A stretch of 64,000 bases of DNA, from the NCBI GenBank assembly GCA_001662655.1, contig KV460217.1, one strand, 5' to 3'. This stretch comes from Pseudogymnoascus verrucosus (Eukaryota). The notes below the pieces were generated by a model that saw only the letters and a list, made by a program, of their open reading frames with translations, did no database searches and had not been told where the DNA came from. The translations under genes were made by a program, and so were the position numbers. How positions within the stretch are numbered: position 1 is the first letter of the stretch; each line of letters opens with the position of its first letter. Below, in pieces: positions 21,125 to 24,701 of the stretch.

Positions 21125-22266
21125 ATGGCTCCCACAAAGGTCGGAATCAACGGCTTCGGTCGCATTGGACGCATTGTCTTCCGCAATGCCGTCGAGCTTG
21201 ACAACATCGATGTCGTCGCTGTCAACGACCCCTTCATTGAGCCCACCTACGCCGTAAGACACTACACTACCCACAAACACAATAAACAAGAATATCTGAC
21301 TAATTCCGCTGCTTCCAGGCATACATGCTCAAGTATGATACCACCCACGGCCAGTTCAAGGGTGACATCAAGGTCGATGGTAAGGACCTGATCGTCAACG
21401 GCAAGACCGTCCGTTTCTACACCGAGAGGGACCCAGCCGCCATCCCATGGTCCGAGACTGGTGCCTACTACGTCGTCGAGTCCACCGGTGTTTTCACCAC
21501 CACCGAGAAGGCCTCCGCTCACTTGAAGGGTGGCGCCAAGAAGGTTGTCATCTCTGCCCCATCCGCAGATGCCCCCATGTTCGTCATGGGTGTCAACGAG
21601 GAGACCTACAAGTCCGACCTCAACGTCATCTCCAACGCCTCGTGCACCACCAACTGCCTGGCACCTCTCGCCAAGGTCATCAACGACAACTTCACCATCA
21701 TTGAGGGCCTCATGACCACCATCCACTCCTACACCGCCACCCAGAAGACCGTTGACGGCCCATCCGCCAAGGACTGGCGTGGAGGCCGCACTGCGGCCCA
21801 GAACATCATCCCATCCTCCACCGGTGCCGCTAAGGCCGTCGGAAAGGTTATCCCCGTCCTGAACGGCAAGCTTACCGGCATGTCCATGCGTGTCCCAACC
21901 GCCAACGTCTCCGTTGTCGATCTTACCGTCCGCATCGAGAAGAGCGCCAACTACGAGGAGATCAAGGCCGTCATCAAGAAGGCCTCCGAGACCACCATGA
22001 AGGGTATATCCACCCCCCACCCCCATCCCCCAAATTTCTGCCCAGACTAACATCCCCCAGGCATACTCGCCTACACCGAGGACGAGGTTGTCTCCTCCGA
22101 CATGAACGGCCACAACGCCTCTTCCATCTTCGATGCCAAGGCTGGTATCTCCCTCAACGACAACTTCGTCAAGCTCGTCTCGTGGTACGACAACGAGTGG
22201 GGCTACTCCCGCCGTGTGCTCGACCTGCTCGCATACATTGCCAAGGTCGACGGCGCTGCCCAGTAG
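21125..22266 (+). CDS. gpd: Glyceraldehyde-3-phosphate dehydrogenase
   Basis: [10 protein letters not shown], active site [21 protein letters not shown]. Introns 21254-21318 and 22004-22060; probable 5'-UTR intron 20872-21124 (GTGAGT..CTGAC..AAG). Confidence 0.99.
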
Positions 22267-24701
22267 GACCTTCTTCTCACTTCCACCCCGCGTCGCTGAC
22301 GTCGCGCCTCCTCCTCCCTGCTGTTTCTCCAGAGTCTGATATTTGTGTGTTTTCTTCGCAGGGGGGACCTGGTCAAGGGACGGCTATGAGCGCTTCGTCG
22401 AGATGAAAATATAAAACGAATGAAACTTGTCGGACAAAAAAGCGATGCGAGGGAATGATGATTGCTGAGATTTAGAGAATATTTTTTTGGGCTCGAGCAA
22501 TGAGGATGCGTAGATCGATGTGCTTTGTGCCTTATCGTGAGCTTGTTCGTTGTCTTTGAGAGGCTAGATAAATTATACATGTTCTCGCCTGATTTGTCTT
22601 TGCTATTTACGTGTGAATTTATGTCCATATTTTGTTGTGAAGGGGACATATTCCATGTCCTTCTATTACTCTCAAATACATTATCAGCCTTCTTACATCT
22701 CTCCCTCTTAACACCATCTCAACACCGCCGAAGAAACCCCAAGACCCCACCAACGCAGCCTCTCCAAATCCAGTATAAAAGGCTCGCTTGATACTCGATT
22801 CATGTTCAATACTTCAAAAACGCAGGCCATATCTTTCCGTTATCTGCGCGTGGGTTTGTTGAATACAGCTCATACTGACATTTTCCCGTCACGCCTTTCT
22901 GCTGCAGCTGGGCTGGTATGCGGTTTCTTGTTGGTGCGGAAGCTGTTGTCGGTGGGGGTTTCTTGCTGTCGTGGTTGTTGCCACCGTTGGTGCTGTCACC
23001 GGTGGATGGCCTGGTGTCACCTTCTCTCTTGCTAGCATCCTGAACGGCCTCTTTGCGGGCTGCAGCCATCGAGATACCCATTCGTCATCTTGTAACTGCC
23101 ATTCTATGCGGATTCCTATCTTATTCATGTCTTGCCAGCTAAGCAATAAAAAAAGTAATGGGAAGTCGAGCTTAATAATAGGGGTGCTGGACGAGGTTGG
23201 TGGCCTTGAGTGTGTAGTTTTACGATAGGGAAGACCTTCGCCCCAGACTTGAGCCCCGGTCTTCTGACAGGTAGGAATGATGAGGAAACAAATTGTGATA
23301 TATACAGCTTATATATTGTCGAGCATTCCTTGCTCGACATTCTCCACCTTCGATTTTCTCACAGGGATCGGACTATGTATGATAGCTAGAAGGCAAGAAG
23401 AGTCTCACAGTCTTAGATATCAACCCCAAGACTACGAAGTTACGAAGAGAACAAGCGTTTCATTGTTAAATCAAGTGGCCTGGATACAATGAGTGGTAAC
23501 GGACGCCCATTCCTGGTCCGCTGTATGGCCACGACGACTCTCGCGATTTCTTCTCACCGATGCGGTCTTCTTGTCAATGCGGTCTTCTCACCGACCAAGT
23601 GTTCTTGCCAACAAAATATAATCACGAACATGGAATGGAGTGTAGTATCAAGAGTTGGAAGCTCTACCCAGTGGTGGGACTGGGCCGTTCATCAAACAAT
23701 GTCGTGTAAGGCCCTTCATTAAATGTTTCAAACCAAGCCTTGTTTGTTTATACCATTGGGCGGGTGCAGTGGTAGATATACACTCGTCTTGCTACAAAAT
23801 GTTGAAGAATTATATATATTTCGATTGTAGTCACAAGGCATAGTATAATCCTCAGCACATCATACGTGGTGGAGTTCATGGAATACTCACCCCATCACTA
23901 GATGGGGGAGAAGTGATTTCAATCAGAAGTGCACGAAGTGCTGGTGTATCGCCATAATGGGGTTCTTGAGGCCCCTCAGTAACACGGACCAATTTGTTCA
24001 TCATTTGAAATCTTGGGGAGGGGAGAAAGGGGGAAGGGAAAAGGGGAAGAAGAAGAGAAAGAGAAAGATGATAGGAAAGATGAAGATGGAGTCGAAAAAG
24101 GCGGTTTCAGTAATCGTAGTCGTCTGGGGACAAGTCACTCCGCTGGCCTGGAGGCATGTTTCACCTGTATCTCATGTTATAATGTCCGTAAAGGGTGTCC
24201 ATTCATCATGTATGATGCTAAAATAAAGGGAAGAGGTGAAATGTAGCAGCTGTCGGTAAGAAACATAAATCATCAAGCATGTAAACAGAGGCTCTCAATC
24301 GTATCCATTACAGCGCCTTCGAATTCGTGCTCTCGAGCACATGATAGCGAGAAGCCAGACCTTACAATCACTCCCGTCGAAACGGAAGAGTTTGCACCAG
24401 CTACTCGACAATAATAGGCTCTGAATGAGTAAAGAAGAAAGAAGAAGAAAGGTTCCCTTCCCATAATAATTTTGCATCATATCGTCGTTACGGAATATCA
24501 TTAATCCGCAACCGAGGCCCCGCAGCCAATCACACAGGACACAAGACAGTTTAGTAATAATACGCGCTAAATCCCAATATCACAGCGTTTGGCAGTGAGC
24601 TTGACTACCGCAGCCGACTCCCAATAGAGGTGAATACACAACGCACGCCGCTGTACAGCACTGCCTCTTTCCGTTTCCTTTGGTAGTTGATGAAAGGCAC
24701 G

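Follow-up and report, generated by a model that had tools for sequence, protein, structure and literature searches.

A stop codon embedded in a weak splice donor and a predicted peroxisomal form of glyceraldehyde-3-phosphate dehydrogenase in Pseudogymnoascus

Background

Many fungi are reported to form a peroxisomal version of glyceraldehyde-3-phosphate dehydrogenase (GAPDH), either by alternative splicing or by read-through of the stop codon (PMC9549241, PMC3798809). In Ustilago maydis a cryptic type 1 peroxisomal targeting signal (PTS1) of GAPDH is reached through an alternative splice (Freitag, Ast and Bolker 2012, cited in PMC3798809, PMC3798556, PMC12316961 and PMC9549241). The spliced form is given as 10% (PMC3798556), and the peroxisomal enzyme is described as acting in the NAD+/NADH balance, in overlap with the GPD and MDH shuttles (PMC9549241). 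Aspergillus nidulans is reported to use read-through for GAPDH and alternative splicing for PGK (PMC12316961, PMC3798809). In this work we focused on the GAPDH gene within a stretch of 64,000 nucleotides from Pseudogymnoascus verrucosus (contig KV460217.1, assembly GCA_001662655.1), hereafter called the window, in which the stop codon of the gene lies inside the donor of an alternative 99-nt intron. An earlier note, made from the sequence alone, had proposed that removal of this intron gives GAPDH a PTS1-like tail, and the fungal precedent that it named is indeed stated in PMC9549241 and PMC3798809.

The window gene resembles the U. maydis case in three respects: the enzyme is the same, an alternative splice at the 3' end exchanges the normal end for a short PTS1 extension, and the extended form is the minority (10% there, about 13% by k-mer depth in one run, X1, here). 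U. maydis is a basidiomycete, whereas the present case belongs to the Leotiomycetes, a class of ascomycetes, and is distinguished by a donor built from the stop codon and by a non-canonical G-R-L tripeptide after a conserved -LK-. Import and a phenotype were shown in U. maydis, whereas the Pseudogymnoascus case is known from sequence and RNA contigs. The GAPDH and PGK of A. nidulans are, as here, glycolytic enzymes of an ascomycete in which a PTS1 extension is hidden, but the route taken in the window is splicing, and read-through, used by A. nidulans GAPDH, is blocked by a second in-frame stop after 10 codons. The GAPDH paralogues of Phycomyces blakesleeanus, which end in -GAL and -GNL, resemble the window gene in having a weak PTS1 with Gly at -3; the signal is constitutive there and borne by separate paralogues, whereas a single gene makes both forms here. 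Finally, MpaH', the acyl-CoA hydrolase that serves mycophenolic acid synthesis, studied in a filamentous ascomycete host, ends in G-K-L, as does one of the metagenomic loci described below (L006), and the G-R-L of the window differs from it by Arg for Lys. MpaH' is an unrelated enzyme and its signal is constitutive.

Splice- or read-through-made peroxisomal GAPDH in fungi is already known. What is new is the genus, probably also the class, together with the exact element (a stop codon embedded in a donor, with a conserved -[LV]KG[KR]L mini-exon behind it) and the explanation that it provides for a split between models of 339 and 347 residues in GenBank. Among the papers listed in a limited literature search, none named Pseudogymnoascus together with peroxisomal or spliced GAPDH. 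The present analysis adds a well-supported Leotiomycete case to splice-made peroxisomal GAPDH, established in Ustilago, and gives the exact anatomy of the element. It also provides a recognisable signature for searches of other fungal genomes, namely a stop-overlapping GTAGG donor followed by a conserved tail that ends in -KG[KR]L.

Methods

Four public runs (X1, a soil metatranscriptome, X2, X3 and X15), all in the form of Logan contigs, were aligned to positions 21900-22700 of the window with a threshold of 90%. Chance occurrence of PTS1-like tails was evaluated by shuffling the 200 nt behind the donor 2000 times with dinucleotides preserved. A scan of metagenome DNA for related loci returned at least 80, the closest relative among the matches listed having 89% identity. 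The Pseudogymnoascus GAPDH protein cluster comprises 23 members, 15 of which were examined.

Results and discussion

The stop codon lies within a splice donor

The gene is a phosphorylating glycolytic GAPDH gene on the + strand, its ATG being read from the sequence at 21125. The last sense codon, CAG (22261-22263), is followed by the stop TAG (22264-22266). A weak donor, GTAGGA (22263-22268, + strand), begins at 22263, to the base where the earlier note had placed it, and its letters 2-4 are the TAG stop itself. The alternative GT..AG intron that starts with this donor is 99 nt long (22263-22361, + strand). The branch-like motifs GCTGAC (22295-22300) and TCTGAT (22335-22340, + strand) and the AG dinucleotides ending at 22332 and 22361 are also where the note had located them. 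The acceptor CAG used in RNA closes a pyrimidine-rich stretch (22341-22361, + strand), with pyrimidines at 11 of the 15 positions before the AG. The fungal branch-site consensus is CTRAY, and on this ground TCTGAT, 21 nt upstream of the acceptor, is the likely branch site. The suggestion that the distal GCTGAC might serve as such was not borne out, the motif conserved among relatives being TCTGAT.

The reading frame that follows 22361 is G GGG GAC CTG GTC AAG GGA CGG CTA TGA, where the first G completes CAG (Q) and GDLVKGRL is followed by a TGA at 22387-22389; the coding part of this mini-exon thus occupies 22362-22389 on the + strand. Removal of 22263-22361 takes out the TAG and fuses ...AAQ to the eight residues GDLVKGRL, as had been predicted. 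The conceptual spliced product (21125-21253, 21319-22003, 22061-22262 and 22362-22389) has 347 residues and is identical to the GenBank model P0127, and the unspliced one has 339 residues and is identical to the model P0125. A weaker route from a donor at 22246 to the acceptor at 22332, also put forward in the note, does end in KGRL by arithmetic, but its donor, GTCGAC, is poor and no such joint was seen in the contigs of the four runs. By the same arithmetic an acceptor at 22334 yields the KGRL end, and it found no support in RNA.

We propose, with a probability of about 0.7, that this arrangement makes a minor, peroxisome-targeted GAPDH isoform by stop-in-donor splicing, as in Ustilago, import being a prediction. 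Most transcripts would keep the 99 nt after codon 339, terminate at the TAG and give the cytosolic enzyme of 339 residues. In a minority, roughly a tenth, the spliceosome would take the weak GTAGGA donor, the suboptimal TCTGAT branch site and the acceptor at 22361. Splicing would then delete the stop and join the frame to a coding mini-exon of 25 nt, resulting in an enzyme of 347 residues ending in -LVKGRL. The terminal G-R-L, aided by the conserved Lys at -4, would act as a weak PTS1 read by Pex5, and a small share of GAPDH would enter peroxisomes beside the cytosolic bulk. By analogy with U. maydis, its role there may lie in the NAD+/NADH balance.

In the spliced mRNA the new stop is found 25 nt past the last junction. 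A stop so near the last junction is, by established rules, no target of nonsense-mediated decay, and the spliced mRNA should therefore escape it.

The sequence features described above are observed directly, and some of them can arise by chance. Among the shuffles, 57 of 2000 gave a tail fitting the relaxed PTS1 pattern [SAGCPN][KRH][LMI], one gave G[KR]L and none KG[KR]L. On the relaxed pattern a coincidence in a single window has a probability of about 3%, i.e. the feature alone is not rare, and the case therefore rests on the RNA joint and on conservation in relatives.

The spliced form in RNA

The junction predicted in the earlier note is present in RNA. One contig of X1, with a depth of 365.7, joins 22262 exactly to 22362, and the 99 letters left out have GT..AG ends. 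The neighbouring X1 contigs cover 22196-22263 (depth 2572.4), 22235-22391 (2335.4; this one retains the intron) and 22362-22592 (1078.2), and their break points match a two-branch bubble at 22263 and 22361 in an assembly graph with k=31. The shorter side of the joint measures 28 letters because of this bubble geometry. From the two alternative contigs the spliced share in X1 is 365.7/(365.7 + 2335.4) = 13.5%, a rough figure, being derived from contig k-mer depths in one run. As a positive control, the constitutive intron 22004-22060 is removed in contigs of X1, X2 and X3. The fourth run, X15, covers this intron as well as intergenic DNA and therefore behaves as DNA of a related strain.

The extended form is thus the minor transcript in X1, the one run that shows both forms. 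This bears on the possibility that the 347-residue enzyme is the main product and the 339-residue enzyme a by-product of intron retention, as might be supposed from the annotation of 3 of the 15 cluster members at 347 residues. Such an interpretation appears very improbable, since the intron-keeping contig of X1 is about 6 times deeper (2335.4 versus 365.7), X2 and X3 contain the intron-keeping form alone, a cDNA-like metagenomic contig (L006) keeps its intron, and the other 12 cluster members end at the canonical stop.

Conservation among proteins and metagenomic loci

Three of the 15 cluster members (P0121, P0122 and P0127, corresponding to 6 GenBank accessions) have 347 residues, of which the last eight are GDLVKGRL. 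As their cores are different at several positions, an identical tail is carried by three distinct Pseudogymnoascus proteins. Nine are full-length and end at the canonical stop, eight of them with 339 residues and one with 340, and the remaining three, an N-terminally extended model of 483 residues and fragments of 67 and 210 residues, have the same stop. As models of 347 residues exist in some strains, gene predictors had already chosen the stop-in-donor intron, without comment. The split between 339 and 347 residues among GenBank models of sister strains is thereby accounted for: the two lengths correspond to two real products, and neither results from faulty annotation.

The GAPDH C-terminal motif was found in 18 of the 80 metagenomic loci, including the near-duplicate pairs L004/L005 and L007/L016. 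In 4 of these 18 (L001, L006, L015 and L017) a G precedes the stop, so that the T of the stop completes a GT donor. Three of the four, L001, L006 and L017, repeat the architecture of the window, with an intron of 55-83 nt, a TCTGAT and a mini-exon ending in KGRL or KGKL, and in this respect too the tail is conserved as the earlier note would have it. L001 has the donor AA/GTAGGA, an intron of 83 nt and the tail DGQLKGRL; L006, in which the intron is kept, has AA/GTAGGG, 64 nt and EFLKGKL; and L017 has AA/GTAGGG, 55 nt and EVLKGRL, compared with GTAGGA over the stop, 99 nt and GDLVKGRL in the window. A TCTGAT lies about 20-25 nt upstream of the acceptor in all four. The invariant blocks of their alignment (A1) are the donor, the TCTGAT and the last codons, and the remaining intron sequence is not alignable. 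The fourth locus, L015, was rejected as a candidate: its donor, GTAAGC, overlies a TAA stop, in the tree the locus groups with a Sordariomycete, and none of its acceptors yields a PTS1-like tail.

Conservation of the tail is observed at the peptide level. Its conserved part consists of five residues, [LV]-K-G-[KR]-L, with a basic residue and then Leu at the end in all four loci. Over these last five sense codons the variable sites number 2, 1 and 5 at codon positions 1, 2 and 3, respectively, as exemplified by Gly (GGA/GGT/GGC/GGA) and Leu (CTA/CTT/CTC/CTT). Judged from the alignment, such a distribution is that of a translated sequence on which purifying selection acts.

These data bear on splicing noise, i.e. 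occasional use of a weak donor leading to a tail without function. Both the GTAGGA donor and the TCTGAT branch site are suboptimal compared with the signals of the gene's own constitutive introns (donors GTAAGA and GTATAT, branch sites CTGAC and CTAAC), and the joint was found in one run only, as noise would have it. We nevertheless regard noise as unlikely, because four loci have retained the donor, the branch site, the acceptor and the KG[KR]L frame despite diverged intron sequence and length, the changes in the tail codons are mostly at third positions, and KG[KR]L appeared in at most one of 2000 shuffles per locus (0, 1, 0 and 0 for the four loci).

The same loci bear on the route by which the tail is reached. 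Stop-codon read-through would be compatible with the 99-nt intron of the window, which leaves the mini-exon in frame with the TAG; it is the route reported for A. nidulans GAPDH (PMC12316961), and other GAPDH loci examined here look like that type. Against it, a second in-frame stop lies 10 codons past the TAG of the window and closes an extension (DLLLTSTPRR*) that has no PTS1, the introns of L001, L006 and L017 (83, 64 and 55 nt) put the tail out of frame with the stop, and a spliced contig exists in X1. Read-through as the source of this tail thus seems extremely improbable. As intron lengths of 99, 83, 64 and 55 nt keep no common frame with the stop, splicing alone reaches the tail in all four loci.

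In a single-gene tree L006 and L017 are placed, with moderate support, next to Helotiales and Erysiphales, and L001 lies near the base beside Pseudogymnoascus. The splice type looks centred on the Leotiomycetes, a tentative placement drawn from this tree. Two further relatives give hints in the same direction. A contig of X2 (342 nt, depth 14.7) has a 3-letter insertion behind 22250, amounting to an extra alanine codon, lacks 22301-22334 and then follows the window for 59 letters starting at 22335; it may come from a relative with an intron of 65 nt and a kept mini-exon, which is a hint only. In X3 a relative has AAG TAG GA at its stop.

The tail as a peroxisomal signal

Residues upstream of the terminal tripeptide are known to tune weak PTS1s. 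The tail of the window has R-L directly before the TGA, and the three other loci have K-L or R-L, as the classical PTS1 requires at positions -2 and -1. Glycine at -3 also occurs in signals described elsewhere. GKL was reported to be required for the peroxisomal localisation of MpaH' in Aspergillus (bioRxiv 10.1101/524025), GRL appears in a list of plant PTS1 tripeptides validated by experiment (PMC3427985, Table A1), and both tripeptides are regarded as PTS1 motifs of mammalian AGT (PMC12960970). Of the Phycomyces GAPDH paralogues ending in -GAL and -GNL, the latter end is reported to be functional (PMC12316961). Pex5 binding, import and a physiological role are inferred for the extended enzyme.

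The window itself offers a comparison, which had also been pointed out in the earlier note. An open reading frame on the - strand (43323-43640) ends in KKVKGKL and matches the Pfam 4HBT thioesterase family (E 2e-6), and belongs to a two-exon gene for a hotdog-fold thioesterase at 43323-44132 (- strand). Within this thioesterase family 52 of 86 representatives end in [SAC][KRH][LMI] and 3 of 86 in GKL; among the 34 with E <=1e-10 the corresponding numbers are 26 and 1. The closest representative, with 91% identity, ends in KAKL. Since the family mostly ends in AKL or SKL and the window copy in KGKL, the organism carries G-K-L at the PTS1 position of the family, which is indirect evidence for such a signal. 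The gene probably encodes a peroxisomal acyl-CoA thioesterase with a G-K-L signal. Together, the GAPDH tail and the thioesterase suggest a regular use of G-[KR]-L as PTS1 in the genus, which bears on predicted peroxisomal proteomes of Pseudogymnoascus. The genus includes the pathogen that causes white-nose disease of bats.

A spliced tail that is functional without being a peroxisomal signal, e.g. through GAPDH oligomerisation, a moonlighting role or turnover, would agree with the non-canonical Gly at -3 and with a conservation that spans five residues, [LV]-K-G-[KR]-L, and so goes beyond the tripeptide. Yet the conserved part is the extreme C-terminus, with a basic residue followed by Leu, as a PTS1 demands, and tuning by upstream residues would account for the longer conserved stretch. 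GKL and GRL are moreover validated PTS1 tripeptides elsewhere, and GAPDH is the textbook case of a fungal cryptic PTS1 (PMC9549241). We therefore hold a non-peroxisomal function of the tail to be improbable.

Several observations weigh against a peroxisomal isoform made by splicing. The joint is a single contig in one of four runs, and its shorter side has 28 letters at a threshold of 90%; in metagenomes, joints with a side of less than 30 letters and a likeness below 95% can stem from other organisms. To be set against this warning of foreign origin are the exact fit to the predicted GT..AG intron and the bubble geometry. X2 (depth 5.5) and X3 (187.9) contain the intron-keeping form and no joint of 22262 to 22362, which does not amount to absence, as contigs drop rare variants. 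The Gly at -3 falls outside the classical PTS1 pattern [SAC][KRH][LM], as the earlier note had itself acknowledged in calling GRL non-canonical. Among the 267 proteins compared the tail is annotated in three Pseudogymnoascus models and in no protein outside the genus. It was found in none of six further cluster members, four of them representatives; in the two longer models among the six, insertions near the N-terminus account for the extra length. Lastly, L001, L006 and L017 are metagenome contigs, and their placement near the Leotiomycetes comes from a single-gene tree with moderate support.

Taking the loci together, a wider view is conceivable, which we hold tentatively and with less than even confidence. 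The stop-in-donor intron with its -[LV]KG[KR]L mini-exon would be an old feature across the Leotiomycetes and perhaps neighbouring classes, with Dothideomycete- and Eurotiomycete-like GAPDHs using read-through instead. Nearly every filamentous ascomycete would then keep some peroxisomal GAPDH route, switched between lineages. Gly at -3 with Lys at -4 might constitute a signal that is weak by design and, jointly with the weak donor, determines how much of the enzyme is imported.

Gene model and neighbouring features

The gene is of the single-copy type and encodes the glycolytic GAPDH of a Pseudogymnoascus species (Leotiomycetes). In the single-gene tree it groups inside Pseudogymnoascus, its protein cluster is that of the Pseudogymnoascus GAPDHs, and a protein search gives relatives at 98-100% identity, for which the metagenome scan yielded no DNA. 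All its coding exons are on the + strand. Exon 1 (21125-21253), when joined to the others, translates exactly to the GenBank models P0125 and P0127. The translation of exon 2 (21319-22003) is 100% identical to P0002, P0125 and P0127 and matches Pfam Gp_dh_N and Gp_dh_C. The last coding exon of the main, 339-residue form (22061-22266) includes the TAG stop; its translation was checked, and the joint of 22003 to 22061 is found in contigs of X1, X2 and X3. The constitutive introns, 21254-21318 and 22004-22060, are read as having ordinary fungal splice signals. For P0127, i.e. the spliced product, the Pfam E-values are 2.1e-37 (Gp_dh_N) and 1.4e-70 (Gp_dh_C).

The poly(A) addition site of the mRNA maps to 22590-22592 (+ strand), where an X1 contig terminates at 22592 and is followed by 24 A; the cover by RNA runs ceases in the 22575-22601 bin. 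Upstream of the gene (20870-21124), reading of the sequence alone points to an apparent intron in the 5' untranslated region (UTR), running from a GTGAGT at 20872 to an AG at 21123-21124 that abuts the start codon. The donor of this apparent 5' UTR intron overlaps a minimal upstream ATG-TGA.

The strain represented by X15 has the penultimate codon AGC (Ser) in place of GCC (Ala), a change at 22258-22259 that is shared with the proteins P0121 and P0129, which contain ...GASQ; no further difference from the window is listed within 22263-22361. One X15 contig tracks the window to 22389, the last base of the mini-exon TGA, after which 129 other letters replace 90 and the match resumes at 22480. 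In that variant the likeness ceases exactly where the hidden coding part ends.

Read-through-type GAPDH loci

Other fungal GAPDH loci, in which no GT is formed at the stop, have in-frame read-through extensions ending in PTS1-like tripeptides. In L002 (2680-2720) TAG GAA TCA GGA opens the extension ESGQSRAMPKL. In L003 (2324-2360), read by eye, the real stop is a TGA, followed by TDATVIQSRL. The extension of L007 (3490-3560; also L016), in which L007 was read by eye, ends in ...SHL, and those of L009 (1073-1110) and L010 (1207-1250) both end in ...SVL. Judging by these extensions, the six loci look as if they belonged to the read-through type described for GAPDH of Aspergillus. The context TAG GAA TCA G is common to several loci of this type, and the TAG CAA TCA of L010 resembles known leaky contexts.

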